Shown one piece after another: positions 3,837 through 40,025 of a DNA stretch of 64,000 bases (within the stretch, counting starts at the first letter, position 1; each line of letters starts with the position of its first letter). The stretch comes from a virus, in the IMG/VR virus record IMGVR_UViG_3300032087_004407, positions 14,890-78,889 of that record; one strand, 5' to 3'. The position numbers and the translations under genes were made by a program. The notes beneath the pieces were generated by a model. The model had not been told where the DNA came from. It saw only the letters and a program-made list of their open reading frames with translations, and did no database searches.

Positions 3837-3843
3837 TATCCGC

Positions 3844-6090: not shown

Positions 6091-6115
6091 CTTGAACAAC
6101 GAAAGATAGTATAAT
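6087..6115 (+). promoter_or_regulatory. sigma70 promoter, leaderless; -35 overlaps the rIIA stop codon
   Basis: TTGACT-17-TATAAT, 7 nt, ATG at 6123. Confidence 0.85.
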
Positions 6116-6122
6116 ACACGAC

Positions 6123-7169
6123 ATGAACAAAATACCGTACATATTGGGCGAAAATGCAGTAACGCTATTTGTAGATGGCAAGCCTGTCACGGTTCGCAAC
6201 GACGATGCAAACTACTACGAAGTACGCAAGTGCTTGTTGGACGGTCGATACGACGATGTAACAACGTATCTCGACCTTGAAAAGCAAGTAGAAGATTACA
6301 CCGATGGAGACATTTCCATTAAAGACGGTGAAGTTTTCTTTGGAGAGGAAAAACTCAATGGAGTAGTAGTTGACAAACTACTTGAGTTGATGAAAAGTGG
6401 TTTGACTGATAAAAATCCTTTTATCAATTTTCTCAAGAACCTATTGAAGAATCCATCAAAAAATTCAGTAGATCAACTCTACACTTTTTTGTCGAAGCGC
6501 GATATGCCGATTGATGAAGAAGGTTTGGTGATCGGCTACAAAGGTGTAGCGCAAAATTACAAGGACAAGTATAGTGGCAAGTTCGACAATAGTGTTGGGC
6601 AATCCCATGAAATGCCTCGCAGAAATGTCGATGATAATTGTGAGAATCATTGTTCATACGGTTTTCATATTGGCTCATACGATTATGCAAACGATTGGGC
6701 AAGCGGAGACGGTCACTTGATGATTGTCAAGTTCAATCCAGAAGATGCTGTTAGCGTTCCTACTGACTGCGACTTTCAAAAGTTGAGAGTATGCAAGTAT
6801 AGCGTAGTCGGTGAGATTACTGACAGAAAGCAACTCAAGCAACCTTTCTATGATTCGACAGGAGAGTTCTCTGATGAAGATTTTCTCGGTGATATTCACC
6901 TAGAAGATTACGAAAATGATTCATTGGATAATGATTCATACGAAAGTGACGCAACTCGCTTGGCTATTCGCAACTATGTTGAGAACAAGCATGAGGACAA
7001 TACAGAACCTACTGTCAAGCAAATTCAATCACGCATGAAAGGCACAACCTTAACTTCACAAGAAATTGTGGACATTGTGGAAGAATTAGGCTTTGAGGTA
7101 GAATATAATAAAGAGGCACTATCTCGCTCAAGAGTAGTAATCGGTGAAGATATTTCAATTACAAACTAA
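6123..7169 (+). CDS. rIIB: rIIB-like protein
   Basis: IGYKGV, DNSVG...EMPR..VDDN...CSYGFHIG, KFNPEDAVSVPTD..FQKLRVCKY. Confidence 0.85.
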   Translation: MNKIPYILGENAVTLFVDGKPVTVRNDDANYYEVRKCLLDGRYDDVTTYLDLEKQVEDYTDGDISIKDGEVFFGEEKLNGVVVDKLLELMKSGLTDKNPFINFLKNLLKNPSKNSVDQLYTFLSKRDMPIDEEGLVIGYKGVAQNYKDKYSGKFDNSVGQSHEMPRRNVDDNCENHCSYGFHIGSYDYANDWASGDGHLMIVKFNPEDAVSVPTDCDFQKLRVCKYSVVGEITDRKQLKQPFYDSTGEFSDEDFLGDIHLEDYENDSLDNDSYESDATRLAIRNYVENKHEDNTEPTVKQIQSRMKGTTLTSQEIVDIVEELGFEVEYNKEALSRSRVVIGEDISITN

Positions 7170-7486
7170 AATTAATTATATAAAAATATTATGACAACAA
7201 CAGCAGAAGCAGAAAAGTTGAATCTTCAAAATTTTGAAGATGCTATTAGCAAGACAAATGATACCAATATTGATACGCTTTGGGCAATCCTAAAGTACAA
7301 AGAAATTGGAATTTATCGCAAGGTAAAGTGTATGTCCGAGGTTTTGGGCGTTGACTTCGATCAACTCTCAGGAGAGTTACCTACTGATTCAAGTGGTAGG
7401 ATTCTCGATCAAAAATCAAGGCATGGCATTCACGACATTCTTATCAAGTATTCGTAATCGTTAGTTGATAGTTATGTAGACAAATC

Positions 7487-7508
7487 GGGGGAGGGTAAAA
7501 CCTCCCCC
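7487..7508 (+). terminator. GC-rich hairpin after the rII block
   Basis: GGGGGAGG-GTAAAA-CCTCCCCC; no clear U-tract. Confidence 0.5.
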
Positions 7509-7799
7509 ACTTCCCCTAAAACAAAATGAAAAATATTATTAGATATATTGTAAAGGATGCTAAAGGCGAGTACCAAAGCGCATATAGCACCAAGCTAGGA
7601 GTCAAGGATGCGTTCAAATACGCTACCCTTACAGCAAAGGATGTTTATGGAGTAATCTACTCAGTAGACAATAATGGTAACGAAGAACAAGTTACCAGTT
7701 ACCCCAAACCAGAAAAGAAGAAAAAGCCACAAGCAAAAAAATAAATAAATTTTAAAAAAAAGTTTGACTCGCAGACCGAAATTTGTTATAATTACTCCC

Positions 7800-8510
7800 A
7801 TGTTGAACGAGAATGAAACCTTGCAAATGAGTATGTTTAGTCCTTTGGGCTACGAAACACCAACCGCCGATTCTTTTGTCGCTTCGCTCGACAAAGATGA
7901 AGTAGCCAAGTACACCGAGTATTGGCAAAGTATTCAACCAAAAAATCACGCCGATTATTTTCGTCGCTGGTTGTTTTCGCTTATGTCGGTACACACTACT
8001 TGGGAAAGCAATGTGCGTGGATACAACTTCCTCAAAGACTTGTCATGGTTATTCGACAAGGATAAGTTGGCTAACAAGATTGTAGATGCTCGCGTTGGCT
8101 TGCACACAAATCGCATCAAAGCAGTTTGGCAACTATTCGATCAGTTTCATTCAAACGTCGATGACTTTTATCGCAGAGAAGATGAGAGTTGGTCAGACTT
8201 CCGCGATAGGTTAGTTGAAAAAGTTTTTATGTTAGGTTATGCCAAGACTACTTTTCCTATTGGCATGAGCTTTCCGCTTGAGGCAGACATTGTTTGTCTT
8301 GACGTTCACTTTCTTCGACTACTCGGATGGAAGAAAAAGTCAGTTCCCTCCAAGCGCGACTATCACAAGATAGAAAAGTATTGGGTTGACCTTTGCCGCT
8401 CGCGTGACTTTGCTCCTAGCGTTGTTCGTGAAATGTATTGGGACAAAGTACAAGGAGAGGACAATTCACGCTATTGGAGTTATTGCCTCGAAAGCAATAA
8501 TGATGAGTGA
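7800..8510 (+). CDS. HhH-GPD superfamily N-glycosylase/DNA lyase-like protein
   Basis: MLGYAKTTF (HhH Lys) and IVCLDVHFLR (catalytic Asp); leaderless promoter TTGACT-17-TATAAT at 7764-7792. Confidence 0.6.
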   Translation: MLNENETLQMSMFSPLGYETPTADSFVASLDKDEVAKYTEYWQSIQPKNHADYFRRWLFSLMSVHTTWESNVRGYNFLKDLSWLFDKDKLANKIVDARVGLHTNRIKAVWQLFDQFHSNVDDFYRREDESWSDFRDRLVEKVFMLGYAKTTFPIGMSFPLEADIVCLDVHFLRLLGWKKKSVPSKRDYHKIEKYWVDLCRSRDFAPSVVREMYWDKVQGEDNSRYWSYCLESNNDE

Positions 8511-15230: not shown

Positions 15231-15980
15231 ATGACTATCGCAAAACAACCTCATTCTACTAATAATGAGAAACAAGCGGCTCAAAAAGATGGTCATGAAT
15301 CCAAGGATTAATCCCAAATAAACAAATACGCCGCTTAGTCGCCAAATATAATGCAACATAAATTCTATTTAATAATAGACAAAAATGTATCAGAATTAAA
15401 AGCAACAAATATGTTTATGAATTGGGTTAAAGATGTTTCAGAGTTTTTATTGCCAAATAATACAGGCACTACTCCAGAAGAGTTTTTCGAGCTAATGAAT
15501 ACAGCAAAAAGAATATCAAATAACGTTACCAGCGTAGAAAGTACTAAACATTATATATATCATACAAAACAATGAAATGCAAAATAAAAATAATTGGATC
15601 AAATAATGATATATTATCGTTGGGAAATGAATATCGCGGCGAGTTAATTGCAAATAAATTAATTGTAAATTCGCGCATTGAACATCATCTTTCATCTGAA
15701 AATATTTGGGAGTTACGAGATCAAGACTACAGTAAAGAATTGACATTAGACATCAAAGATGTTATTATATGCGATCAATACATCCATGTGGATGCATGGT
15801 TTGTAGATGCAGACAGTAATGGAGGAAGAGTAGAAATGGAACTATATTGGGAATCACTTGGATAATAATAGGTAGTATACTAGTATGGATATACCTAGAA
15901 ATAATAAATAACAATAATTGAAAATAAAAATAAATGAAATATAATTAAATAAAGCACAAATATTTGCTTAAAATATATAG

Positions 15981-16032
15981 AACTCTCACAAGGCAGGCCA
16001 AATACAGGTACGACCAAGTGAGAGTTTTTTTA
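15981..16032 (+). terminator. Stem-loop with T-tract ending the rightward block
   Basis: AACTCTCAC...GTGAGAGTT followed by a T-run; the loop is long. Confidence 0.45.
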
Positions 16033-16082
16033 TGCAATTGTAAATTAGAAACTGATAAATAATAAATAAAGAAATAATTTGC

Positions 16083-16164
16083 TTGACAGCGGCGGAATTT
16101 TTTGGTAAAATGTTATTGAGTCTCAGTCTCAACGGGGCCCCTAGGGCCCCCCCAGCATGTCAAG
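16083..16164 (+). repeat. GGGGCCCC element A, with sigma70 promoter and 7-1-7 box
   Basis: TTGACA-17-TAAAAT, TGAGTCTCAGTCTCA, GGGGCCCCTAGGGCCCC, TGTCAAG. Confidence 0.8.
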
Positions 16165-16170
16165 AAAAAA

Positions 16171-16245
16171 TGGTGGGTCGAGTGAGGTTCGAACTCACAA
16201 CCAATAGCTTAAAAGGCTACTGCTCTACCGTTGAGCTACCAACCC
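16171..16245 (-). tRNA. tRNA-Lys (UUU), CCA encoded
   Basis: Cloverleaf: acceptor GGGTTGG/TCGACCC, anticodon arm GTAGC-CTTTTAA-GCTAT, TTCGAAC T-loop, ACCA end. Confidence 0.95.
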
Positions 16246-16249
16246 ATGA

Positions 16250-16324
16250 TGGACGCGCAGGCTGGAATCGAACCAGCTCAAAAGACTTTTGCAGAGTCCC
16301 GCCTTACCATTCGGCCACTGCGCG
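16250..16324 (-). tRNA. tRNA-Cys (GCA), CCA encoded
   Basis: Acceptor CGCGCAG/CTGCGCG, anticodon loop CTGCAAA, T-arm GCTGG-TTCGATT-CCAGC, U73 discriminator. Confidence 0.95.
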
Positions 16325-16332
16325 GTTAATGG

Positions 16333-16611
16333 CTACCAATCGCAGCAGCCACCGTAGTCTTCATCAGTTCCCCAGCCAGCACTTGCCAACGCATCAGCAT
16401 CAGCTTCGGCATCGCTGTTAAACTGATCTTCGTTCCATGTGATCTCGACATCGTCGATAGACCACACAGTCTCAGCAACATCGTTATGCTTCCACACAAC
16501 ATCTGTGCAATTTTCCCATGCGCATTCAATCGCATCCTCAAGTCCTTCGTGAGACTTTGGAAACTCGCGGAATGTTCCGCCCTCTTCTATAACTTGGTAA
16601 CAGTTATCCAT
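16333..16611 (-). CDS. Small acidic protein, paralogue of 21707..22000
   Basis: Shared FNSDAEADADALASAGWGxDEDYGGC tail; own promoter TTGACT..TATACT at about 16621-16648. Confidence 0.8.
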   Translation of the reverse strand: MDNCYQVIEEGGTFREFPKSHEGLEDAIECAWENCTDVVWKHNDVAETVWSIDDVEITWNEDQFNSDAEADADALASAGWGTDEDYGGCCDW

Positions 16612-16644
16612 AACTTCTTTAGTATAACAAATTTTTCGGTAAAG

Positions 16645-16875
16645 TCAAGCACTAAAGTGTGCTAAAAGACTTTCTGCAGATTCCGCATCGCGGCTTATCG
16701 TACGAGCGTTTTCCAACTCTTTTATCGCAGAGGTTAAGATGCGCCTGATATCGTCCGTTTCACACCATTGTGTTTCTAGGTTGTCAACGACCCACTCAAG
16801 AGTACCTTCGACTCCTGCAATCTCCATACGCGCTTCTGTTTGCGTTGGCTTTTGTAGATATGCATTCTCTGACAT
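16645..16875 (-). CDS. Hypothetical protein (MSENAYLQ...)
   Basis: Promoter TTGACA..TATACT immediately upstream; its stop codon lies in the next -35. Confidence 0.7.
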   Translation of the reverse strand: MSENAYLQKPTQTEARMEIAGVEGTLEWVVDNLETQWCETDDIRRILTSAIKELENARTISRDAESAESLLAHFSA

Positions 16876-16936
16876 AACGAGGACAGTATAGCACGCTTTT
16901 TGCCATGTGTCAACATCTTTTTTACACATATTTTTT

Positions 16937-16967
16937 GCTTGACTTTCGAGGGGCCCCCCTGTCAAGC
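16937..16967. repeat. GGGGCCCC element B
   Basis: GCTTGAC-TTTCGA-GGGGCCCC-CCT-GTCAAGC, between divergent blocks. Confidence 0.85.
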
Positions 16968-17129
16968 TTTTTCTGTGTAAATTTAATTGAACTTTTTTCT
17001 TGCAATGTTTTCCAAATGTGATATAATTATACGCGTCAAAGGGGAAAGCTACCTGAGACAACCAAGCCAAAAAAAAGTTGAATTTTTTGCTTGCAATCGG
17101 AAAAAGTTTTTGTTATAATTATCGGACTT

Positions 17130-17897
17130 ATGAAAGGACTAATGTTACATTGTGGCGCACACGCAGTAGAGCGTGAGCAAGTTGCTGAGGTTAACACTCC
17201 CCAGCGCACGGAGACTTGGACTCCAATTTCTCACGAGTACTTGATCGATGAGGTCAGTCGTACTCTCAACGCCTCTCGCATGAATATTGCAGAGGAATCA
17301 CACGCCTTGACCCGTGATGGTCAACGCTACTTCGGGTTGTTTCGCATCGAGTCACAGGACTTGGCAAACAAGGACTACTCCACCGTGATGGGTCTACGCA
17401 ATGCACACGACAAGTGTTTTCCTGCTGCCATCGCATTTGGTGCAAGCGTTTTCGTTTGCGACAACCTATCGTTCTCTGGTGAGACTCAATTGGCTCGACG
17501 CCACACCAAGAACATCTTCCGCGATTTGCCGCAGGTCATTTCGCGCACCATTGGCCAACTTGCTGACAAGTGGTCATTTCAGGACAAGCGTTTCGACGCT
17601 TATCGTAACACGGACATCTCCGACAAGGAGGCTTGTTTCTTGGTTCGCGAGGCTTATCGTGCTGGTGCTTGCAAAAAGACCGACGCGATGGACATTCTCG
17701 ACCAATGGGAAAAGCCCAACCATCCTGAGTTCGAGGATCGCAATGCTTGGAGTCTCTTCAACGCATTCACCGAGGAGTTGAAAGGCAACTTGATTGCCCT
17801 CCCCAAACGCACACAAGCTCTTCACGGCTTGCTTGACGGTCACTGCGGTGTTCTTTCCGCAGATGAGTTACCCGCCACCAACGTCATTAACAATTAA
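17130..17897 (+). CDS. DUF932-family protein
   Basis: TWTPISH, RYFGLF, GLRNAHDK, VFVCDNLSF, RRHT, WSLFNAFTE; promoter TTGCAA-17-TATAAT at 17091-17119. Confidence 0.75.
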   Translation: MKGLMLHCGAHAVEREQVAEVNTPQRTETWTPISHEYLIDEVSRTLNASRMNIAEESHALTRDGQRYFGLFRIESQDLANKDYSTVMGLRNAHDKCFPAAIAFGASVFVCDNLSFSGETQLARRHTKNIFRDLPQVISRTIGQLADKWSFQDKRFDAYRNTDISDKEACFLVREAYRAGACKKTDAMDILDQWEKPNHPEFEDRNAWSLFNAFTEELKGNLIALPKRTQALHGLLDGHCGVLSADELPATNVINN

Positions 17898-18168
17898 TCG
17901 AAAGGATTTTTTGATATGGTACATCATCACCTAAAGAGCGTGCTTAATCGCACCAAAGGTCGTTTCACCAGTTTCTTGGTGAAGGATGGTTCTCGCCTCG
18001 GCTTGAGCGTATACAGCGCCAAGCACGTGAGCGCAACTCCTAAGTCTGTAGTGTTTGAAGACACGAACGGCGCAGGACGCAAGCGCATCGCTCGCGAGAA
18101 TATCTTGGTCGCTCAAGTAGCGAACGACGTATTCTACCGCAAGTAGAATCAGGGACATTCCCAAAGCA

Positions 18169-18200
18169 CCCGCTCACACTTGTTGTGAGTGGGATTTTTT
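18169..18200 (+). terminator. Intrinsic terminator
   Basis: CCCGCTCACA-CTTGT-TGTGAGTGGG-ATTTTTT. Confidence 0.8.
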
Positions 18201-18238
18201 GCTTGACACGATCGGGGGGGCCCCTCCCAGATGTCAAG
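18201..18238. repeat. GGGGCCCC element C
   Basis: CTTGACA...GGGGGGGCCCC...TGTCAAG. Confidence 0.85.
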
Positions 18239-18296
18239 TCTTTTCTTTGCTGATTTTAACGCTTGACTTTTTCCGTCAGTCTGCTATACTGTTCAC

Positions 18297-19186
18297 ATGA
18301 ATGAGGGATTTATTGCTTACACTAAAGACAACATCAACCTTTTTAGGTTGTTATCATTGCGCAGTGCGTTAAAACTAGAGATAGTTGGCATGAAAAAGCG
18401 CGGACGTTCAGCTTACAGCATTATCAAAGAAGAGTTTGGATTTAAAGGTAGCAAAGAATCAGTATTGGCAGACTTGCAAGAGTTAATCGCACAAAAAAAA
18501 GATGAAAACACTACAAGCGTACAAAAAGATAAGAAAGCCGCTTCCTCCCCCTTCATTCCCCTTGCCGAGCAAAAAAACTTACTCAAGGAAGAAAAAGTTC
18601 AAAAAAGGGGTTGACATAGGAGAATAGGTGTGCTATAATTATCGCGTTGTTTGAGAGAAGTATGAAGACTGTTGAAATGGAAAACTACTTGGAAGACATG
18701 GCTCAGGTTTTATTCGGCCGTGGTCGCAAGGTTGCAATGGACAACCAACTGTGTGTGATGTGCGGAGGTGACGCGAATTACTTCGCGGATGAGCTTTCCC
18801 GCAAAGAGTATGGCATATCTGGTATGTGCCAAGAGTGTCAGGACAAAACTTTTGCTTGACATACGACAAAAACTCTGGTATAATTTACGGACTTTATGAG
18901 AAAAGAAGTTGCTATAAGCGAAGGTCAGTTGTACAAGTTCAAAGGTGCAACGGTGCGTGTGGTGAAGCCAACCAACAACGATATGTGGTTGGTAACTGGT
19001 AAAGGACAGCTTTGGGGTTTCGCCAAAGACAGTCAGTTGGGCAAAGCGTCCAACAGAGAGAAGAGAGCTTACGAAGGTAAGCCAAGTTTAGTGGATCGAT
19101 TTTTAGGTGCATCAGAAGCACTTGGTGCGAAAGTTGGCCTATTATCCGTAGCATTGGTTATCGCAACGATAGCCGTTCTCTCATAA
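18297..19186 (+). other. Three small single-promoter ORFs (18297..18614, 18647..18859, 18896..19186)
   Basis: Each has its own sigma70 promoter (18263, 18611, 18856); 18647 ORF has CxxC...CxxC. Confidence 0.7.
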
Positions 19187-19192
19187 CAAACA

Positions 19193-19470
19193 AGTCAGAC
19201 TGGGCTGACTATAAACAACCCAGAAAATTTTCTCGTTCGACGGAGCGAGATAGGTGTGGCTGAATAAATCTTCGCCTAGAGGATTAAGGCACGCTTAACA
19301 GAACCAACGGCCAAGTGGCAGAGGAACTGTTGGGTGGTTTGAGTAGAGATCACTGAACTTGATCTAGGACTCGAAAGATGCAGGTAATCAATGAATCCTG
19401 TCACCATTTTTAATTTTGAGTTGGCGAGTTAAACACGCCTCCATCGCCCCCAAGGGACAGGGATGGTAAG
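19193..19470 (+). ncRNA. Structured non-coding RNA region: H-type pseudoknot plus multi-stem RNA (possibly manA-motif-like)
   Basis: No ORF; successive stems with G-U pairs at 19231-19250, 19251-19297, 19304-19333, 19341-19372 and 19380-19401. Confidence 0.6.
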
Positions 19471-19518
19471 ACATTTTACGCTTTATTGCTGGTGGCGCGG
19501 CAACAACTCATTTTTTTC

Positions 19519-19556
19519 CTTGACTTTTTGAGGGGGGCCCCCCACCCATGTCAAGC
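19519..19556. repeat. GGGGCCCC element D
   Basis: CTTGAC...GGGGGGCCCCCC...TGTCAAG. Confidence 0.85.
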
Positions 19557-19617
19557 TTTTTCTTTGCTGCTTTTTCTTATTGACTTATTTTTTGAATGTG
19601 CTATAATGTTCCCCGTT

Positions 19618-19761
19618 ATGAGAGAACAGATTGAAGAAAAAATTGCACAATGGGTTGATGACCTCGAACGCACTCCGCATTATCCATACCTCGACAAAAT
19701 TGTCACAGATGAGGACGTCGAAAAACTTTGCGAGGTTGTAGAAAAAATGTTTGACAACTAA
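19618..19761 (+). CDS. Small hypothetical protein (MREQIEEK...)
   Basis: Promoter TTGACT-16-TATAAT at 19580-19607. Confidence 0.6.
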   Translation: MREQIEEKIAQWVDDLERTPHYPYLDKIVTDEDVEKLCEVVEKMFDN

Positions 19762-19789
19762 CCCTGTATCTGCTATACTTTTTCCCGTT

Positions 19790-20536
19790 ATGACAAACAA
19801 CTTGCTAAAATTCGGATTTGAGAACGCTAAACTAAAAGGCATTTGGCATTTCAGCTTGCCAAGTGGTTGGACTTGCCCCGCTGCCACGGTGTGCATGACA
19901 CGCGCAGACAAAACCACAGGAAAAATTTCTGACGGTAAAAACCAAGAGTTTCGTTGTTATGCTGCTATGGACGAGGCACGTTATCCCACAGTCCGCAAAG
20001 CGCGTTGGCACAATTTCGATTTGCTAAAGAATTTGACCAAGGATGAAATGGTCGAGCTTATCTCGGACAGTTTACCCGCTGGCCTTCGTCGTGGTGGTTT
20101 GCTTCGTGTGCATATAGGTGGCGACTTTTTCAAGGCAGATTATTTTCAGGCATGGAAAGAGGTTGCGGAGAAGTTTAAGAAGATTACCTTTTACGCTTAT
20201 ACAAAAAGCCTTCACATTTGGGAGAAGTTCGTCAACGTCATTCCCGACAATTTCATTCTCACCGCATCCAAAGGCGGGAGATTCGACGAGAAAATCGAAT
20301 TGCTTGGCTTAAAAAGTGCCGAGGTTTTCTTGAGCGAAGAAGAAGCGACTATGGCAAACCTTGAGATTGACCACGACGACAGCCATGCTTGGGAGGGCAA
20401 AGAGTCTTTTGCCTTGCTTATACATGGACAACAAAAAGCTGGCAGCAAAGCCAGCGAAGCCCAAAAAGCCTTGAGGAAAAAAGGCATTCACGGCATCAAG
20501 CAACACAAAAAAAAGGAGGTGACTGTTGCCGCTTGA
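19790..20536 (+). CDS. GP88-family protein (radical-SAM-related fold)
   Basis: FSLPSGWTCP..C...CYA, RVHIGGDFF, FYAYTKS; promoter TTGACA-17-TATACT at 19751-19779. Confidence 0.7.
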   Translation: MTNNLLKFGFENAKLKGIWHFSLPSGWTCPAATVCMTRADKTTGKISDGKNQEFRCYAAMDEARYPTVRKARWHNFDLLKNLTKDEMVELISDSLPAGLRRGGLLRVHIGGDFFKADYFQAWKEVAEKFKKITFYAYTKSLHIWEKFVNVIPDNFILTASKGGRFDEKIELLGLKSAEVFLSEEEATMANLEIDHDDSHAWEGKESFALLIHGQQKAGSKASEAQKALRKKGIHGIKQHKKKEVTVAA

Positions 20537-20596
20537 TATCATTATCTTAGGAGCATTGTTTTACGGTAGTTGGTTAGTAGTTAATGATATAAAAAA

Positions 20597-21028
20597 ATGA
20601 GTAAAAAGAACTTGATAAGAACGTGGCTAGATCACCCCCCAAAAGGTAGGGTGCAGGTATACTACAACTTGCACAAAAAATGTTTGTCAATTAGGTACAA
20701 AGGAAAAGTAATTGAACACGCTCGCGAAGTTACGTTGACTGATGCGCGTTTTCATGTTCAACCCGCAGGCCGTGCGCGCGTACTTCGTGAAAAGAAAAAG
20801 AACGTGCACGCTTACGTTTCGGGAAAGCTAAAAGAAAGTTTTTGGTTCACGCAAGCACCCGCCTACGTTTGGACTGCTGAAAAGCGCGTGACATACAACC
20901 CATATAAAAACGAAACTTTCGTTGATAAATCAAACAACGAAATCGTAACCAGCGCAGAGGTTGTACATATTGCAGACAAAGTTATAACTGCTGGACAATT
21001 TGATCAAAAAAATCGTCGAGCTTGGTAG
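20597..21028 (+). CDS. Conserved phage hypothetical protein
   Basis: VYYNLHK..LS, GRARVLREKKKNVHAYV, VTYNPYK motifs. Confidence 0.7.
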   Translation: MSKKNLIRTWLDHPPKGRVQVYYNLHKKCLSIRYKGKVIEHAREVTLTDARFHVQPAGRARVLREKKKNVHAYVSGKLKESFWFTQAPAYVWTAEKRVTYNPYKNETFVDKSNNEIVTSAEVVHIADKVITAGQFDQKNRRAW

Positions 21029-21127
21029 GTCGAATTGCAATACAATTAAATAGCAAATCAATAAATAGTAAATACAAAACCTCAAGCACTATGTAAACAA
21101 TTATTAAAAAAATTAAATTTCATAATC

Positions 21128-21164
21128 GGCAGGGGCCCCCCTCCCCCAGCACGAACCGTGCCAG
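21128..21164 (-). repeat. GGGGCCCC element E, fused to a sigma54-like box
   Basis: Minus strand CTGGCACGGTTCGTGCT-GGGGGAGGGGGGCCCC; at the convergence point of the two blocks. Confidence 0.8.
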
Positions 21165-21323
21165 TTACTCGCCAGTCCAGCAAGTATCACCAGCCCAGCC
21201 GAAGTCCTCTGTGTAGACCTCCTCCAACTCCACCTCACCAGCGAAGTCGTGCTGCTTGGCCTCACGCGTCAGAGCCGCGTCCTGCTCATTCATCCAGTCG
21301 ATATGCTTATCCTTTTCACTCAT
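21165..21323 (-). CDS. 52-aa acidic protein (MSEKDKHIDW...), not in the ORF track
   Basis: Translated by hand; own promoter TTGACT..TAAACT. Confidence 0.7.
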   Translation of the reverse strand: MSEKDKHIDWMNEQDAALTREAKQHDFAGEVELEEVYTEDFGWAGDTCWTGE

Positions 21324-21368
21324 AACAAAAACAGTTTAACAGAATTTAAAAAAAAGTCAACTAAAAAA

Positions 21369-21560
21369 TTAACCCGCCATGGAATCATCCCAGACGACCT
21401 CACCCTTGAACGTGACGCACGCGCCATTGTCAAAGGCCAACTTGATGGCTTTTTCAAGACCATCGTGAGAACGCGGAAAACCAGCAGTGCCAAGCTCCCA
21501 CTCCACCTGATACATATCAGCCAACATTTCGTCGAACGAGTTCAGTTTCATATCTCTCAT
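21369..21560 (-). CDS. Small protein sharing the SH(D/E)GLExAI motif with the acidic paralogues
   Basis: FPRSHDGLEKAI vs FPKSHEGLEDAI; own promoter. Confidence 0.7.
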   Translation of the reverse strand: MRDMKLNSFDEMLADMYQVEWELGTAGFPRSHDGLEKAIKLAFDNGACVTFKGEVVWDDSMAG

Positions 21561-21638
21561 AACGGAAAACAGTATATCACACTTTCAGATAATTGCAAGC
21601 ATTTTTTTGCATTTTTATTTATTTTTTTTACACGCAAC

Positions 21639-21691
21639 TTGGCACGACATCTGCTGGGGAGGCGGGGCCCCCGTGATGATAAAATTACAAT
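21639..21691 (+). repeat. GGGGCCCC element F (sigma54-like box; near-identical to G)
   Basis: TTGGCACGACATCTGCTGGGGAGGCGGGGCCCC...GATGAYAAAATTACAAT. Confidence 0.9.
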
Positions 21692-21706
21692 ATTTTTATA
21701 CGGCGA

Positions 21707-22000
21707 TTAGTACTCGCAATCGTAGCATCCGCCGTAGTCCTCATCCATACCCCAGCCCGCGCTGGCCAACGCATCCGCGTCAGCTTCCGCGTCAGAGTTG
21801 AAGCCGTCCCACGGCTCGTCTGCATCAAAAGACCCAGAATCCTCAAACGACCAGACCAACTCGGTCTCACCGTCACGCTCACACATAACGTCAGCACCAA
21901 TTTCATTGGCAGCTTCAATCGCGTCCTCAAGCCCGTCATGGCTTACGTCAAACATACGGTGCAAACCGTCCTCGTCAATTACATAGTACATATTACTCAT
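21707..22000 (-). CDS. Small acidic protein, paralogue of 16333..16611
   Basis: 29 D/E in 97 aa; shared C-terminal motif. Confidence 0.8.
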   Translation of the reverse strand: MSNMYYVIDEDGLHRMFDVSHDGLEDAIEAANEIGADVMCERDGETELVWSFEDSGSFDADEPWDGFNSDAEADADALASAGWGMDEDYGGCYDCEY

Positions 22001-22033
22001 AACAAAAAAAGTCTACCAGAATTTTAAAAAAAG

Positions 22034-22189
22034 TCAAGCACATTCAGGGCATGACTCAAAAAACTTACACCAGCACCGATCATCGGCCTCGTCTTCGACA
22101 TTGTCGAAACCGTTCGGGACGGTCACACCAGCGACCCATGCATCGGACTCCATCTCAAACACCTCTTCACAAGTAATCATATCTCTCAT
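22034..22189 (-). CDS. 51-aa acidic Cys-rich protein (MRDMITCEEV...), not in the ORF track
   Basis: Translated by hand; own promoter TTGACT..TATACT. Confidence 0.7.
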   Translation of the reverse strand: MRDMITCEEVFEMESDAWVAGVTVPNGFDNVEDEADDRCWCKFFESCPECA

Positions 22190-22288
22190 AACGAAAAACA
22201 GTATATCACAATTTCCCGAAAAGTCAACACTAAAAACAAACTTTTTTTCAAAAAATTAACTTTTTTTTCAGTATAAAATCGCTGACAT

Positions 22289-22342
22289 TTGGCACGACAT
22301 CTGCTGGGGAGGCGGGGCCCCATGCGATGACAAAATTACAAT
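22289..22342 (+). repeat. GGGGCCCC element G
   Basis: First 33 bp identical to element F. Confidence 0.9.
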
Positions 22343-22401
22343 GTTTTTTTCTTTCATTTAGGAAGGCGGCTAGGATTAACCTAGCCACCTTCCATCGAAC
22401 C

Positions 22402-22611
22402 CTACATGATGTTGATGCCTTGGCGTTTGAACCATCGGCGCAACTCGTGTATCGCCTTTTCGCTCGGGTGAGCGAGGTACGGCGTAACCTCTGGGTTTGG
22501 GGAAAAGTAGAACGTGCCTTTCCTTGTAGGCTCGAGACGAAAGCCCAGCTTTAGTGCTTTGCGCTCGATTTTTTTGTAGGTAGAAGATTGATGCTTGTTT
22601 GCCATACTCAA
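22402..22611 (-). CDS. Small basic protein, possibly HicA-like fold
   Basis: LKLGFRLEPTRKG.FYFSP...HPSEKAI..LRRWFKRQG; hairpin 22361-22393 downstream. Confidence 0.35.
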   Translation of the reverse strand: MSMANKHQSSTYKKIERKALKLGFRLEPTRKGTFYFSPNPEVTPYLAHPSEKAIHELRRWFKRQGINIM

Positions 22612-22629
22612 TTATTCTTTGTAACATTA

Positions 22630-23493
22630 TTATTTGCCGAAGTAGTCGTGATCTTCGAAGATGTTGTCAATTCCGATAACCTCCCACACGTCGCCGTTTG
22701 TCCATTCGTTATTGAACTGCTCGGCCTTAAACAGTTTGTCCATGTCCTCTAGTCTTGTTTCGATGGGAAACGTGGTGTGAACTCGGGTGCAGCCTGCGTG
22801 GATGTGCTGGCCTGTAAACTCAGGGTTTCTGCGTGTCTTGAACACTACCTTCCAGAATGTCTTTCTTTCTCTCATAACTTCAAACAGTCTATCACAATTT
22901 TCTCTAAAAGTCAACTCTTTTTTTCAACTTTTTTACCATTCCACAACTCGGAACCATTCGCCCTTTACGCGCCTATTTAATGGCGTGTAACTTGTCCACT
23001 CTTTCAAGGGAATCTCTTTGACTGTCCGCACTCCATCAACCCAAGGTCCCATGACCTTAACCGTTTTTTCTTTCATATTCTTATCTCTCATAACTTCAAA
23101 CAGTCTATCACAATTCTTTTCAAAAGTCAACACTTTATTTCATCTTTTTTTTCATGTGGTCAGCCCATTCTTTGGCTCGCCTTTCGCGGTCTGCGATTGC
23201 CAACATTGGAAAATCTTTGTCCTTTTGTGTTGGTGGTAGTGTGAACATTCCGCGTTTGAATTGTTCCCACGTTGGGCGGTCGATTGGGTGAATGTTTTCC
23301 CATGCTCGTTTCAGTTCTTTTCGTTGTTCTATTTCTCTCATGTCGGTTTCTAGTATACAGATTTTTTTGATAAAGTCAAGTCTTAAAACGGTATTTTGTT
23401 GACTAAAAAGTCCACCGCTTTTTCGATGAATTCGTTCGTGGCATCAACCGCCTTTTCGATTTTGTCATTTAGAGCGTCTATCACGTTCAACAT
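22630..23493 (-). other. Four tiny single-promoter ORFs (22630..22875, 22933..23091, 23135..23341, 23383..23493)
   Basis: Each has its own TTGACT promoter and a very short leader; the 32-bp promoter/start unit is duplicated at 22868-22899 and 23084-23115. Confidence 0.7.
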
Positions 23494-23568
23494 GCGTATA
23501 TTAAACCACAGATTGGCCCGAAAGTCAAGAGTTAATTTCACTTTTTTTTCTTTTTTTTTATCTGATAA

Positions 23569-23620
23569 TGAGACACAGTCTCAACGCGGCGGGGCCCCGC
23601 CCGAGGGCGGGTGTGTCAAC
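23569..23620. repeat. GGGGCCCC element H, with 7-1-7 box
   Basis: TGAGACACAGTCTCA-ACGCG-GCGGGGCCCCGC-CCGAGGGCGG...TGTCAA. Confidence 0.8.
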
Positions 23621-23626
23621 TACTTT

Positions 23627-24142
23627 TTATAGTTTATAAAAAGCGTGCTGACCGATCACCTTGACTGGCTTCTGTCCTTTTGCCCAGTACGGTTTCTTTT
23701 TCATCCACGTTGCGTGGTAGTGGTTAGCGTAGCCAATGAAGTCACGTGACAAACTCTTGACGTTCTTCGCCACGGTGATGGCGTACTTCGCCTGTGGTGT
23801 CTTGAGTAGATGCTCAAGATCTTTAACACTCTTGCCATTCCAGCAACTGAACTGCCATTTCTTAAGACAAACTTCTGTTGGTGTTTGTTTACGTTCAAAC
23901 GCTCGCTGCGCTATGCACGCACCAACCGCATACATACCAGCCTCACCTTCACCCCTAGCCTCTGCTAGTATAGTGATGGCAACCACCTTAACCTCATGAG
24001 TTAACTGATGATTTTTATGTGTGTGATTAGCTTGTGCGCTAGTCCACCACAACAAGCAACTGCTTACAGTCAACGCCGTGGCGCAAGTACGTGGCATCTT
24101 GTAACCTATCTTGATTAGCTTCAACAAAACCTTGGGAAACAT
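23627..24142 (-). CDS. SleB-like cell wall hydrolase (Hydrolase_2) with a probable signal peptide
   Basis: AITILAEARGEG, WQFSCWN, ANHYHA, PYWA, IGQHAFY. Confidence 0.85.
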   Translation of the reverse strand: MFPKVLLKLIKIGYKMPRTCATALTVSSCLLWWTSAQANHTHKNHQLTHEVKVVAITILAEARGEGEAGMYAVGACIAQRAFERKQTPTEVCLKKWQFSCWNGKSVKDLEHLLKTPQAKYAITVAKNVKSLSRDFIGYANHYHATWMKKKPYWAKGQKPVKVIGQHAFYKL

Positions 24143-24234
24143 AGTAATTCTTTTTTTTAAGTTTATGATTTTTTTTATCTACTAAAGCGAAGGCGGGAAT
24201 GTCTCCGCTTACCATTGTCAACAACCAACCGAGG

Positions 24235-24495
24235 TCAGAGGATGTCGTCATCCTCCTCCTCGTCGTCGGTGTACTCGTCGTATAGCTCGCGGAAGGCGGG
24301 AGACAATGCGCTCATGTCGCAAGTGTTCTCGTCGCGCTCGTCGAACCAATCGTCATCTGGCGTAGTGCCAAGAATGTCGCGTTCGCAATCTACCTCGTCC
24401 TGTGTCGCGTACGTCACGGCGAAGTCCTCGATGGGGTCAATGTTATAGTCGTCCATAACTTCGTTTAATGTACCAGAAAAATTGTCCATTGTCAA
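24235..24495 (-). CDS. Extremely acidic small protein
   Basis: 31 D/E versus 3 R in 86 aa. Confidence 0.7.
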   Translation of the reverse strand: MTMDNFSGTLNEVMDDYNIDPIEDFAVTYATQDEVDCERDILGTTPDDDWFDERDENTCDMSALSPAFRELYDEYTDDEEEDDDIL

Positions 24496-24505
24496 CCTTT
24501 TATTT

Positions 24506-24679
24506 TTATTCTTCCAAGTATTTCACGCAGTCCTCAACAGACCAATCGTTTCTCATGGCCCATTCAACCGCACCTTCAACGTCGCAGTATTGGCGCACTT
24601 CGTCGCACACCAAAGACTCAACTTCAGCCAAGAACTTCTGGGAGTTCAACTCGTTCATCGTATGTGGATTATCTCTCAT
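24506..24679 (-). CDS. 57-aa acidic protein (MRDNPHTMNE...), not in the ORF track
   Basis: Translated by hand; own promoter TTGACT..TATACT. Confidence 0.7.
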   Translation of the reverse strand: MRDNPHTMNELNSQKFLAEVESLVCDEVRQYCDVEGAVEWAMRNDWSVEDCVKYLEE

Positions 24680-24733
24680 AACGGGAATCAGTATATCAGA
24701 TTTTTTTTAAAAGTCAACCTTTTTTTAGTTTTT

Positions 24734-24916
24734 TTATCCCCAGTCGCCTTGCTGGCGGCGCTTTTGGGTGAACCAGAACATTTCCGCATTAGCTTTGCGC
24801 TTGCGCTCAGCTAGCTCGACCTCCTGTGCCTCGATGGCATCATTCTGCCACTCATCACACATTGCATTCAACTCGAAGATCTCTTCACAACTCAGGTTAT
24901 CAAACGTAGTATTCAT
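24734..24916 (-). CDS. Small hypothetical protein, first gene of the leftward block
   Basis: Promoter TTGACT..TTTAAT at about 24962-24990. Confidence 0.6.
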   Translation of the reverse strand: MNTTFDNLSCEEIFELNAMCDEWQNDAIEAQEVELAERKRKANAEMFWFTQKRRQQGDWG

Positions 24917-25033
24917 TTTTTTATTCGTTAGGCGGTGGGCTTTCCCTCACTCGCTGGAAACATTAAACCATGGATTGAGGAAAAAGTCAACACCTAAAAC
25001 AACTTTTTTTTATTTTTTTTTCGTGCGTCGCAG

Positions 25034-25050
25034 AGCACGTGCCGTGCCAA
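25034..25050 (-). promoter_or_regulatory. sigma54-like -24/-12 box
   Basis: TTGGCACGGCACGTGCT (GG-N10-GC). Confidence 0.55.
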
Positions 25051-25275: not shown

Positions 25276-25983
25276 ATGGATTGTAAAACTTGTAAAACGT
25301 GTGGAGTAGAAAAATCATTAAGTGAATTTTATAAAAGTAAAAAGTATAAAAATACTCAGTATTATAACTCTTACTGCAAATCATGTAACAGCAAACAAAA
25401 ACAACAATATTATCAAAAAAAAAGAGAAGCAATACTAGCCCGCCAGAAAGAATATGCTGCCGATCCTAAAAATAAAGAGGCAAAACTAGCCTACATGAAG
25501 GAATATAACGCTGATCCCAAAAACAAAGAAAGGCGAAAGAAATATGACGCTGACCCTAAAAACAGAGAAAAAATAAGGGTGCAGCAAAGAAAATGGCACA
25601 AAGAAAGAAGACAATCTGATCCTTTGTATAAGTTAGTATGCAACATAAGAACTCGCATTAGCGTAAGTATCACAAATGCAGGATTCAAAAAAAACAGCAA
25701 AACACACAAAATTTTAAATTGTTCTTTTGAAGAATTTATGTCACACCTTGAAAAACAATTTAACTCAGGAATAACATGGGAAAATTATGGAAAATGGCAT
25801 TTAGATCATATTGTGCCTGTATCATTAGCTTCTACAGAAGAAGAAATAATAAAACTAAATTATTATAAAAACTTTCAACCTATGTGGGGTCCAGAAAATG
25901 AATCTAAAAGCAATAAAATTATGCATGAAATGATAACCCCTGAACTACAAGAAAAATACAAAGAAATACTACAAAGAGTTTAA
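25276..25983 (+). CDS. HNH endonuclease with N-terminal Zn finger and internal K.Y.ADPKN repeats
   Basis: CxxC...CxxC; TWENYGKWHLDHIVP...NFQPMW..EN..KSNK. Confidence 0.8.
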   Translation: MDCKTCKTCGVEKSLSEFYKSKKYKNTQYYNSYCKSCNSKQKQQYYQKKREAILARQKEYAADPKNKEAKLAYMKEYNADPKNKERRKKYDADPKNREKIRVQQRKWHKERRQSDPLYKLVCNIRTRISVSITNAGFKKNSKTHKILNCSFEEFMSHLEKQFNSGITWENYGKWHLDHIVPVSLASTEEEIIKLNYYKNFQPMWGPENESKSNKIMHEMITPELQEKYKEILQRV

Positions 25984-26020
25984 TTGTAGAAATTAACAAC
26001 TTTTCAATATATTATTTTCT

Positions 26021-26380
26021 ATGTCAGATAAATGTTTTGAATGTGGCGCTCCCGCAGAATGTAATCATCATGTTGTACCAAGAAGCCTTGGAGGAACTCA
26101 AACAATACCATTGTGTTTAGTTTGTCACGGAAAAATACATGATAAAGATTTTGTTAAAGCAAAGCGACTGCAAAAAATAGGGTTCGCTAAGGCAAAGGCA
26201 GCAGGCAAACATATAGGCAGATTTTCATCTACCAATGAAGCCCAGGATCGTGAAATAGTTAAAAGATATCAAGACGGCGAAACTTATGAGGAAATTGGGA
26301 AAAAATTCAACATTAGTCGTATGAGTATTTGGCGCAGACTAAAAAAAGCAAATGCAATAAAAGATTCGCAACCTGCGTAA
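26021..26380 (+). CDS. HNH-like zinc domain fused to a resolvase-type HTH
   Basis: CFEC..HHVVPRSLGG...LCLVCH; AKAKAAGKHIGR followed by HTH. Confidence 0.65.
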   Translation: MSDKCFECGAPAECNHHVVPRSLGGTQTIPLCLVCHGKIHDKDFVKAKRLQKIGFAKAKAAGKHIGRFSSTNEAQDREIVKRYQDGETYEEIGKKFNISRMSIWRRLKKANAIKDSQPA

Positions 26381-26421: not shown

Positions 26422-26438
26422 TTGGCACAATATTTGCT
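26422..26438 (+). promoter_or_regulatory. sigma54 (RpoN) promoter of amt
   Basis: TTGGCACAATATTTGCT matches TGGCAC-N5-TTGC; 14 nt before ATG at 26453. Confidence 0.75.
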
Positions 26439-26452
26439 AGTATATTTTGCAT

Positions 26453-27667
26453 ATGACTGAGCTAAAATTCATGGTAGATAATCTTTGGATATTAATCTCT
26501 GCATTATTGGTATTTATAATGCATCTAGGATTTTCTACTTTAGAAGTCGGACTAACAAGACAAAAAAATACCGTCAATGTTTTGTTTAAGAATATGTTTA
26601 TTATAAGCATCGGGTTAATTACATACGCGCTTGTAGGTTTTAATACTATGTATCCTGGTGAATTTAATAACATATTAAGTATCGGCGGTCCAATAGGATT
26701 TGTTGATGCAACTAAAAATCTAACCCATGAATATGGTGATTATACATATTACAGTGATTTTCTGTTTCAAGCAATGTTTGCAGCCACAGGAGCAACAATT
26801 GTATCTGGAGCAGTAGCTGAACGAGTAAAATTAAGTAGTTTTCTTATTTTTGCTGCGTTGTTAGTAGGATTAGCATATCCCATTGCAGGAGCATGGAAAT
26901 GGGGTGGAGGATTTTTAGATGATATGAATTTTTATGATTTCGCGGGCAGCTCTGTAGTTCACGCTTTTGGAGGATTCGCGGCTTTAGCGTGTGCGTGGCT
27001 TTTGGGTGCGCGTGCAGATAAGTATAAAAATAATAAAATAAACGCTCTCAACGGTCATTCTATGCCATTAGTGGCTATCGGAGTGTTCTTGTTGTGGTTT
27101 GGATGGTATGGATTTAATGGTGGCAGTGTTTTATCTGCTGATCCAGCTTCTGTTTCTTTTGTTTTTGTTACAACTTCATTGTCTGCAGCATGTGGAGTAT
27201 TATCTGCAATGTTTATTTCATGGTTTAAAAACAAAAAACCAGATTATACTATCACAGCTAATGGTGCATTAGCAGGTTTAGTAGGTATAACGGCAGGTGC
27301 AGATGTTGTTTCTATATGGTCTGCATGTGCAATCGGATCAATCTCAGGTATACTACTTGTTTTTGGCAGTGATTTAATAGAAAAAATCTTAAAAATTGAT
27401 GATCCAGTTGGTGCAATTACTGTTCATGGTATTTGCGGCGTTTGGGGAACAATCGCGGTTGGTATTTTCAGTGCTGAACACAGCATTTTAATACAAACTG
27501 CAGGATCATTGATAATCAGTGTGTTTGCTTTTGTTTTTTCTTTTGTTGTTTTTGGTGCCCTCAAGAAAACTTTGGGTGTCAGAATCAATGGCGAGCTAGA
27601 ACAAAAAGGTTTAGACATACTAGAACATGGTCATACAGCTTACCCCGACTTCCAAACAAGCTCGTAA
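26453..27667 (+). CDS. amtB: Ammonium transporter (Amt/AmtB family)
   Basis: FQAMFAA, SGAVAER, DFAGSSVVH, WFGWYGFNGGS, IDDPVGAITVHG (twin His), GLD..EHG..AY tail. Confidence 0.95.
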   Translation: MTELKFMVDNLWILISALLVFIMHLGFSTLEVGLTRQKNTVNVLFKNMFIISIGLITYALVGFNTMYPGEFNNILSIGGPIGFVDATKNLTHEYGDYTYYSDFLFQAMFAATGATIVSGAVAERVKLSSFLIFAALLVGLAYPIAGAWKWGGGFLDDMNFYDFAGSSVVHAFGGFAALACAWLLGARADKYKNNKINALNGHSMPLVAIGVFLLWFGWYGFNGGSVLSADPASVSFVFVTTSLSAACGVLSAMFISWFKNKKPDYTITANGALAGLVGITAGADVVSIWSACAIGSISGILLVFGSDLIEKILKIDDPVGAITVHGICGVWGTIAVGIFSAEHSILIQTAGSLIISVFAFVFSFVVFGALKKTLGVRINGELEQKGLDILEHGHTAYPDFQTSS

Positions 27668-30649: not shown

Positions 30650-30946
30650 ATGGCACAAGATAACAAACCAAAAATCACATTTGCTGATCTGGACAACTTT
30701 TTAAAAATAGCACCAATAATCGGCTTAGCAATTTTAGCTTATTTACAAACACTTTTTCCAAGTAAAACTGAATTTAAAGAAATACAAACTCAGTTGATAC
30801 AGATGGACAAAAAAATAACGGAAATGACTGTTTTACAAAAAGCTATTACAAGTAATACTTCAGACTTGAAACAAATAGATCAACGTCTTAGAATTTTAGA
30901 GCTTGAAGTCGCACGGCACAACGCACAAAAAAACGATGTTAAATAG
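30650..30946 (+). CDS. Small TM plus coiled-coil protein (holin-like?)
   Basis: One hydrophobic helix followed by heptads. Confidence 0.4.
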   Translation: MAQDNKPKITFADLDNFLKIAPIIGLAILAYLQTLFPSKTEFKEIQTQLIQMDKKITEMTVLQKAITSNTSDLKQIDQRLRILELEVARHNAQKNDVK

Positions 30947-32186
30947 GCGCAAATTTCTGGGCGGCATAGGATTATCATTCATGTTGCCAAACTTAGAAGC
31001 TTTAGGAAATATTAAGCCAGACGTAAAACGCTTTGCTGCAGTATATGTTCCTAACGGAATCAATATGCACCATTGGACTCCAAGCTATCAAGGAGATTTA
31101 ATTGATTTGCCTGGTACTTTGTCTCCAATGCAAGATCATATTAACAATATGCACATCTTGTCTGGATTGACTCATGACAAAGCAAGAGCAAATGGGGATG
31201 GCGCTGGAGATCATGCAAGAGCTTGTGCAACTTTTCTTACTGGTGTTCAAGCACATAAGCATGAATCTTTAATACGTTCTGGAAAATCTGTTGATCAATA
31301 TCTCGCAGATAAATACAACGGAGTCACAAGATTCGACAGTTTACAATTTACAGGCTCAAAAGCTAGAATTATTGGTAAGTGTGATTCTGGCTACAGTTGT
31401 GCGTATCAATACAATTTATCATGGAAGTCTGCATCTCAACCAATGGCGTCCATGTATGATCCTAAAGACATTTTCAATAGATTGTTTAAGGTTGAAAAAC
31501 TTGAACAAAAGAAAAAACTATATAAAAAATCAATTTTAGATTTTGTTTTAGAAGAAAGCAAATCTTTGTCTCACAATATATCGTCAAAAGATAAAGCTAA
31601 ACTTGACGAGTATATGTATTCTGTTCGTGAAGTAGAATTAGAGCTAGAAAGGCGCGATCAATTTAATTTATCAAATAATTTTGAATTTAACTTTGATACA
31701 GAACAAAAGTCTGATAAGTTTAGATTAATGTATAGTTTGATGCATTTAGCATTTTTAACAGATACAACTCGCGTAATAACATTTTTAACTGCACATGATG
31801 GCTATAATGGTCCTCATAGAGAAATAGGCGTCAATGAAGGTCATCACAGTTTATCGCATCATCAAAAAGATGAAAAAAAATTAGCAGCGCTTGCTAAAAT
31901 TGATTTGTTCAATGTTAGATTATTTTCTGAATTTATTGACAAACTCAAAAAAGATAACTTGCTAGAAAATACAGACATTATTTACGGCGCAGGAATATCT
32001 GATGGAAATAGACATAATCACGATGAACTTCCATGTTTATTAGTTGGTGGTAAAAATCGCAGAAAACACATACGAGTAGAAAAAGAAAAACCAATGTGTG
32101 ATTTATTTGTTAGCTTATTACATAAACATGATATTGAAGCAAAACATTTCGGTGACTCTACAGGTGAATTTAACATAATTACTTAA
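30936..32186 (+). CDS. DUF1552-family protein with a Tat-like N-terminus
   Basis: NRRKFL..., YVPNG, GDGAGDHAR, SVDQ, CDSGYSCAY..NLSW, TDTTRV.TF, HHSLSHH, DGNRHNH..LP, FGDSTG. Confidence 0.85.
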   Translation: MLNRRKFLGGIGLSFMLPNLEALGNIKPDVKRFAAVYVPNGINMHHWTPSYQGDLIDLPGTLSPMQDHINNMHILSGLTHDKARANGDGAGDHARACATFLTGVQAHKHESLIRSGKSVDQYLADKYNGVTRFDSLQFTGSKARIIGKCDSGYSCAYQYNLSWKSASQPMASMYDPKDIFNRLFKVEKLEQKKKLYKKSILDFVLEESKSLSHNISSKDKAKLDEYMYSVREVELELERRDQFNLSNNFEFNFDTEQKSDKFRLMYSLMHLAFLTDTTRVITFLTAHDGYNGPHREIGVNEGHHSLSHHQKDEKKLAALAKIDLFNVRLFSEFIDKLKKDNLLENTDIIYGAGISDGNRHNHDELPCLLVGGKNRRKHIRVEKEKPMCDLFVSLLHKHDIEAKHFGDSTGEFNIIT

Positions 32187-39635: not shown

Positions 39636-40025
39636 ATGCCATTTAGATACTGTACACAATGTGGTTTTAAAAACGTTTACACTTTAAACGAGGCAAAATT
39701 TTGTGCTGGTTGTGGGCAATCACTGAACCAGGCGACAGCAGGCAACGAACCACAAACCACAAACGCACCTCACCTGCAATCAGCACAAGCTAATTTAGAA
39801 GAACCAACAGACATTCCAAATATTTCAAAATTAGAATACTCTGTTGATGTTGGCGCCAATAACAAAACGACTATTGGTCAACTTATAAATTCAAAACAAT
39901 CTTCATCTGAAGGTACGAGGATCTCAAACACTAGTCAAGCTTCAAAAAGAATGACTCGAGAAGAAATTGAAGCTGAAACTATGAGAGAATGTCAAAGTGC
40001 TCGTAACAGACCTTTAGATGATTAA
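39636..40025 (+). CDS. Zinc-ribbon protein
   Basis: YCTQCG...FCAGCG. Confidence 0.7.
   Translation: MPFRYCTQCGFKNVYTLNEAKFCAGCGQSLNQATAGNEPQTTNAPHLQSAQANLEEPTDIPNISKLEYSVDVGANNKTTIGQLINSKQSSSEGTRISNTSQASKRMTREEIEAETMRECQSARNRPLDD

Follow-up and report, generated by a model that had tools for sequence, protein, structure and literature searches.

Sigma-54-type recognition boxes in the boundary modules of a phage early-gene island, with possible docking of the host holoenzyme

Phages redirect or inhibit the sigma-70 RNA polymerase of their hosts, and our literature searches found no description of a phage carrying conserved sigma-54 sites of its own. Among the systems closest to the locus presented here are the promoter-early stem-loop (PeSL) cassettes of T4-type phages, in which the units themselves delimit the insertions and deletions that distinguish close relatives (Arbiol et al. 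2010, PMC2839356; Comeau et al. 2014, PMC4122927). Conserved intragenic and antisense sites for the sigma-54 holoenzyme, perhaps transcriptionally inactive, have been described in E. coli and Salmonella (Bonocora et al. 2015, PMC4591121; Samuels et al. 2013, PMC3844500). Here, we analyze four short elements, boxes A–D, that have the bipartite shape of sigma-54 promoters and lie among the small early genes of an uncultured tailed phage (G000). The window, i.e., the whole stretch of DNA that was analyzed, comprises 64,000 nucleotides and corresponds to bases 14890–78889 of the linear 78,889-bp IMG/VR record IMGVR_UViG_3300032087_004407; all positions are those of the window. We propose that the boxes are one interchangeable brick of the boundary modules between small early-gene cassettes, the other bricks being TTGACA arms, GC palindromes, and small hairpins.

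The boxes are located at 21164→21148 (A, minus strand), 21639–21655 (B, plus strand), 22289–22305 (C, plus strand), and 25050→25034 (D, minus strand), where an earlier note on this DNA had placed them, and they share the TGGCACG and the exact GG-N10-GC shape that it had described. The pattern TGGCACG-N5-TGCT matches four times in the window, compared with 0.01 matches expected from 100 shuffles, and the extended 17-nt consensus YTGGCACR-N5-TGCW matches six times, compared with 0.09 expected. The two extended matches beyond A–D are located at 26422–26438 (plus strand), 14 nt before the ATG of the ammonium transporter gene amt (26453–27667), and at 60897–60913 (plus strand) in the tape-measure gene. 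The latter, the sixth perfect match, is co-oriented with that gene, and the relatives diverge there. Since B and C belong to two copies of a single ~65-bp repeat, the four boxes amount to three independent sequences. Five good boxes are present in ~5 kb of phage intergenic DNA, compared with five pattern matches in an entire 3.9-Mb bacterial genome (G005).

Relatives of the phage were recruited by protein-based searches, and homologous sites were extracted by means of flanking anchors, the box itself not being required. Conservation of the GG-N10-GC spacing, which the earlier note had named as a check, is borne out by the relatives, with the box intact in 8 of 8 B-type, 6 of 6 A-type, 6 of 6 D-type, and 4 of 4 amt sites. 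Of 405 distinct TGGCAY hexamers from related loci, 55 have TGC behind them at the sigma-54 spacing, compared with 2–23 at each other spacing. The positions that the pattern leaves free also agree with the sigma-54 consensus: T precedes TGG in 42 of 51 cases, a purine follows TGGCAC in 50 of 51, and T or A follows TGC in 39 of 51. Substitutions are limited to TGGCAC→TGGCAT, G→A after the hexamer, the spacer, and the base before TGC, while GG and TGC are never altered; as far as the aligned sites indicate, the changes fall only at positions that sigma-54 promoters tolerate.

The behavior of the boxes relative to their surroundings is equally informative. The A box is inverted relative to its flanks in a close relative of 38.5 kb (G001) and in two further contigs (L118 and L132), with the GC palindrome then lying upstream, and the inverted box of G001 matches the consensus better and has lost the hairpin. 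The B-type 19-mer is identical in both copies of the phage and in G001 despite diverged flanks. Box A can be folded as an 8-pair hairpin, and the hairpin potential of A and D is missing in B and C. The strict spacing, the agreement at free positions, and the inversion of the A box together argue that selection tracks the bipartite sigma-54 pattern and not a stem. Judged by these comparisons, A–D are true recognition boxes of the sigma-54 type that are maintained by selection, and recognition by the sigma-54 holoenzyme is likely.

An alternative reading, which we consider unlikely, holds that the boxes are unrelated to sigma-54 and are arms of terminator or boundary hairpins, or the site of another phage or host DNA-binding protein. 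The resemblance would then arise from the GCA...TGC symmetry of the consensus, and the boxes would be retained chiefly as patches of homology through which cassettes are shuffled. A, D, an extra box of G001, and many boxes of distant relatives do form hairpins whose stems read GGCAC or GCACG; however, B and C are the best-conserved boxes and have no usable stem, and stems would be expected to vary, as the GC cores do, whereas TGGCAC and TGC remain constant, barring the TGGCAC→TGGCAT change. Within B units of the G001 type, TTGGCA from the box forms a stem, including one G-U pair, with an opposite TGTCAAG arm ahead of a T-tract, so that the box occupies the left arm of a hairpin like those found elsewhere in the island (E-type, described below). 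Furthermore, an arm of the module E1 resembles the B box minus a short insertion, and other bricks substitute for the box at homologous positions. On the other side stand the A-to-G change TTGACA→TTGGCA, which weakens the hairpin on the transcribed minus strand, the match of the free flanking positions to the sigma-54 consensus, and the recurrence of the same motif ahead of amt at a conserved 12–14 nt from the ATG.

The hairpins of A and D, with 5-bp stems and 3-nt loops, also recall the early promoters of phage N4, which are read by the virion RNA polymerase. Such a role is highly improbable, as B and C have no hairpin, the stem is broken in the D and A boxes of G001, and no giant RNA polymerase was found, although ~12 kb of the genome remains unsequenced by the CheckV estimate. 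N4-like hairpin promoters were rejected on the ground that the giant open reading frames (ORFs) encode the tape-measure protein and tail fibers.

A G-rich run containing GGGGCCCC immediately follows three of the boxes, as had been noted earlier: it occupies 21130–21147 after A (with GGGGCCCC at 21132–21139), 21656–21673 after B (core 21664–21671), and 22306–22321 after C (core 22314–22321), and it does not follow D. The octamer occurs in eight copies in the window, all within 16134–23598, compared with 0.10 expected. The earlier note regarded the boxes as fused to GC clamps; this part of its description fails, since the GC element is a separate brick, which has five copies without a box, is lacking at boxes D and amt, and lies upstream of the inverted A box in G001. 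In related contigs, GGGCCC follows TGC at 0 nt (n = 6) or at 7–11 nt (n = 17) or is absent (n = 27). An exact IMG/VR search for the string of box plus GC clamp gave no matches, and the composite of box and GGGCCC was not found in 201 Verrucomicrobiota genomes. The G+C fraction of the 14 nt after TGC is 0.86 in A–C, 0.64 in D, and 0.21 at amt; the corresponding mean is 0.44, i.e., 12 points below the local value, for 25 cellular boxes located ahead of amt homologs.

The boxes lie in an early-gene island of 9 kb (~16.1–25.1 kb) with a G+C content of 44–46%, compared with 33–38% in the rest of the window. Rightward genes (17130–21028) converge there on 13 leftward mini-genes (24916–21165), and the modules with GC cores divide this leftward array into groups of four, five, two, and two genes. 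Box A stands directly after the stop of the last leftward early gene (21165–21323), at the point of convergence. Boxes B, C, and D each stand on the immediate upstream side of the UP-like A-tract that belongs to an early sigma-70 promoter. The distance to the −35 is exactly 41 bp in B-type units and at the extra box of G001 and 61–62 bp at C; the promoters concerned, at 21598–21571 for B and 22227–22200 for C, diverge from the boxes, and B is antisense to the leftward genes. Box D is co-oriented with the leftward array and is followed by an A-tract and then by the sigma-70 promoter (24989–24961, with its −35 ~45 bp away) of the first early gene (24916–24734). The claim that the boxes are antisense and drive no gene thus stands for A, B, and C, which face no gene, and falls for D, which may drive genes given its orientation and its position ahead of the first promoter of the array.

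Small plus-strand ORFs after B and C were ruled out as genes, for they are not conserved in G001-type units. Intrinsic termination of the leftward genes by A, B, or C was likewise ruled out, the T-tract being absent on the transcribed strand, and a terminator scan detected no terminator-like site on the minus strand near any of the three.

A two-gene cassette on the minus strand (21674–22288; genes at 21707–22000 and 22034–22189) is bracketed by the B and C repeats and is present in 2 of 9 relatives, namely the phage itself and L095. The seven others that carry the site have a single unit joining the left flank of B to the right flank of C. Additionally, the A module occurs in two alternative forms among the relatives.

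The amt box is identical or nearly identical in four lineages despite differing flanks and always stands 12–14 nt before the ATG, a distance that agrees with the leaderless layout of the other phage promoters; it is followed by AT-rich DNA. By its sequence, it is an ordinary sigma-54 promoter, and the earlier note had already regarded it as canonical. Its conservation argues for a host with sigma-54 and would tie infection to the nitrogen status of the host. Two HNH endonuclease genes (25276–26380) lie between box D and the amt promoter in the phage and are absent in G001, in which D and the amt box are divergent neighbors ~205 bp apart; the HNH insertion point is ~12 nt upstream of the amt box, which is undisturbed.

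A second rival reading, which we regard as unlikely, is that A–D are working, enhancer-dependent sigma-54 promoters, with a host activator possibly acting from solution. B and C would then give rise to RNAs antisense to the 3′ ends of the cassettes upstream of them, A would fire across the convergence zone, and D would be a second entry into the early array, so that early expression would be tied to the nitrogen or stress status of the host, as for amt. In quality, the boxes match the conserved amt promoter, D points in the same direction as genes, and E. coli and Salmonella commonly have intragenic or antisense sigma-54 sites (PMC4591121, PMC3844500). In distant relatives, moreover, canonical TTGC-type boxes face the same way as the sigma-70 promoter and gene that come next, and G-U pairs on that strand are seen in the hairpins behind them. 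Against this, a start codon at promoter distance is found for the amt box only, the start region is a GC palindrome, unlike that of cellular boxes, and the inversion of the A box between relatives switches the strand that would be targeted. Neither a conserved upstream activator site nor a dyad was seen near the boxes. A bacterial enhancer-binding protein (bEBP; PF00158) was not found in the phage or in a near-identical fragment (G004) that adds ~47 kb past the right end of the window, and the PF00158 matches in the complete relatives G002 and G003 are ClpB-type ATPases.

The constant position of the boxes, their variable orientation, and the GC palindrome over the start fit docking better than directed transcription. 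Our tentative preference is that the boxes are non-firing docking sites of the host sigma-54 holoenzyme at cassette borders. In this mechanism, the boxes would most likely dock the host sigma-54 RNA polymerase holoenzyme, and at A–C the complex would probably stay closed owing to the GC palindrome over the would-be melting region and start site. The docked complex would act by position and not by direction, marking or insulating the cassette border from the next UP element and promoter, at borders where leftward transcripts have no hairpin-plus-T terminator. Box D, without a GC block and co-oriented, may act as a genuine auxiliary promoter. The roadblock, sponge, or anchor that the earlier note had inferred would be candidate functions of such docked complexes. 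Being conserved patches, the boxes may double as recombination seams for the gain and loss of cassettes, a role suggested by the indel between B and C.

A stronger form of this proposal is doubtful. In it, high-affinity boxes fused to unmeltable GC palindromes would park the closed holoenzyme as an insulator or roadblock and, on replicated DNA, as a sink for the small sigma-54 pool. It is equally doubtful that the clade has, by such parked complexes, turned the activator dependence of sigma-54 into a tool.

Several points weigh against docking. Proteobacterial sigma-54 promoters normally have a T before TGC, whereas in the boxes this base is free to vary (T in 15 of 51); the same relaxed base occurs in cellular boxes upstream of amt homologs in Verrucomicrobiota. 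The complete relatives G002 and G003 (terminase identity 71–74%) carry almost no boxes, so that the wider clade can do without them. In high-GC bacteria, promoters with GC-rich start regions are active, and we are aware of no case in which a closed sigma-54 complex was shown to halt an elongating polymerase. The sigma-54 consensus is partly palindromic, so that hairpins with GGCAC stems mimic a sigma-54 box, and A, D, and many boxes of distant relatives have this hairpin form. Given the pairing with TGTCAAG in G001-type B units, the box may have been derived from a hairpin arm. Finally, a host lacking sigma-54, such as SAR11, would defeat docking.

SAR11 (LD12) has no rpoN (PMC12113158); it is an abundant low-GC candidate, and neither of the two host-like genes of the phage points there. 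The closest cellular amt genes (55–66% identity) belong to Latescibacterota, Verrucomicrobia, Spirochaetota, Pirellulaceae, and Flavobacteriaceae, and rpoN is present in 5 of 5 checked genomes with close amt homologs. The second gene, a DUF1552/HXXSHH gene at 30936–32186 (Pfam E 1e-81) and possibly an auxiliary gene, belongs to a multi-copy family of Planctomycetota and Verrucomicrobiota; homologs at 44–48% identity occur in 60 of 201 Planctomycetota and 12 of 201 Verrucomicrobiota genomes, and at E ≤1e-60 none was found in 201 Bacteroidota genomes. Taken together, amt and DUF1552 make a host among Planctomycetota or Verrucomicrobiota plausible. In the phylum of G005, one candidate host phylum, rpoN was present in 100 of 101 sampled genomes. 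Two other hosts were considered and rejected. An actinobacterial host had been hinted at by the leaderless starts and two mycobacteriophage Pfam families, but no WhiB was found, and the amt genes of Ca. Actinomarina use Shine-Dalgarno sites. A Bacteroidota host was set aside because the early promoters are of the classical TTGACA/TATAAT type and DUF1552 has no close match in the 201 genomes of that phylum.

The remaining bricks of the island are distributed as follows. E1 (16116–16164), beside two tRNA genes, combines GC palindromes, one TTGACA arm, and a GAGAC hairpin. E2 (16937–16967) is a hairpin with inverted TTGAC arms and a GGGGCCCC tip followed by a T-tract, i.e., terminator-like and without a box; E3 (18201–18239), behind a canonical terminator at 18169–18193, and E4 (19519–19555) are of the same type, and all three belong to the rightward array. 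E8 (23570–23620) is a GC palindrome flanked by two small hairpins, one of which is replaced by the extra sigma-54 box in the G001 counterpart. Other relatives carry GAGAC hairpins or ~25-bp palindromes in the same modules. In the distant relatives L148 (1548–1650), L130, L145, and L172, one or two ~25-bp palindromes, arranged around a GC core, come after a sigma-54 box; one palindrome of L148 is flanked by two convergent boxes, and the G-U pairs of these palindromes favor hairpin formation by RNA of the strand that bears the canonical TTGC-type box. On the minus strand of L003 (19345–20100), a distant phage contig found via a GP88-like gene, two intergenic repeat copies each contain a good box, TGGCAT-N5-TTGCT, and sigma-54-type boxes may thus also exist in other phage groups. 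A separate 14-pair hairpin at 22359–22392 lies 10 nt past the stop of the gene at 22402–22605. It has no U-tract, and a G-U pair makes its pairing complete on the minus (mRNA) strand alone; it may serve as a 3′ stabilizer or a terminator working without a U-tract.

A near-consensus sigma-70 promoter, TTGACT-N16/17-TAtACT, precedes nearly every island gene, and the ATG follows 6–11 nt past the −10 in nearly all of them (22 nt in one), without a Shine-Dalgarno sequence. Among the early promoters (window 15900–25000 and the genes at 2831–8510), the spacing often ends in GTT-ATG. A Shine-Dalgarno sequence was seen before no gene of the phage, and its mRNAs thus look essentially leaderless. The late genes have a GTGTAA motif 10–15 nt before the ATG, which is perhaps read by the sigma-70-family factor that the phage itself encodes (40025–40741). 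All 10 mini-proteins scanned from the leftward array are ORFans; two early mini-proteins share a CEE(I/V)FE motif at the N-terminus (LSCEEIFELNA at 24734–24916 and ITCEEVFEME at 22034–22189, both on the minus strand).

The record has an estimated completeness of 57% (CheckV). In addition to amt and its own sigma-70-family factor, the phage encodes rIIA/rIIB, a large terminase, a tubulin-like gene, and a tape-measure ORF of >2,000 aa. Its best terminase match among cultured phages has only ~26% identity, and a megablast search against cultured phages gave no matches. The uncultured clade is large: >588 IMG/VR contigs have a terminase match, homologous islands occur on ~40 marine metagenome contigs, and one island gene has homologs across many ocean metagenomes. 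G001 is 96% identical in core genes and 84–90% in the island. G004 is labeled a provirus; its non-overlapping part yielded giant structural genes only and no host flank. Two of its loci, L262 (18697–29568) and L263 (2587–10755), encode tail-fiber proteins of 3,623 and 2,722 aa.

When compared with canonical enhancer-dependent sigma-54 promoters, such as those of amt/glnK, the boxes share GG-N10-GC and the extended YTGGCACR...TGCW, and the phage amt gene has such a promoter. They differ in that A–C face no gene, carry a GC palindrome over −11 to ~+6, and have no recognizable activator site; additionally, the phage boxes have no conserved T before TGC, and neither G000 nor G004 yielded a bEBP. 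As with the sites in E. coli and Salmonella, they are conserved and do not lie upstream of a gene; however, those sites are inside chromosomal genes and of low density, whereas the phage boxes are intergenic and dense. If the boxes bind the holoenzyme, they would be a natural case of sigma-54 closed complexes serving other than gene start, which would bear on the open question of the role of the many non-promoter sigma-54 sites in bacteria.

The likeness to PeSLs extends over several traits. Short conserved regulatory units stand among small ORFan early genes in a hyperplastic region, a strong sigma-70-type promoter lies next to a stem-loop, and the indel of the B–C cassette is bounded by units, as described for PeSLs (PMC2839356). 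The terminator trait is divided: E2–E4 combine a hairpin with a T-tract, whereas the transcribed strand at A, B, and C lacks such a tract. In contrast to PeSLs, some units here have a sigma-54 box and a GC palindrome that replace the stem or stand beside it, the orientation of the box varies, and the phage is not T4-like, having a giant tape measure and no cultured relative. On the strength of these sequence comparisons, the boxes are filed as PeSL-type boundary modules that incorporate sigma-54 boxes; if they bind the holoenzyme, they would be a new brick for modules of the PeSL type, which drive the shuffling of cassettes in large phages.

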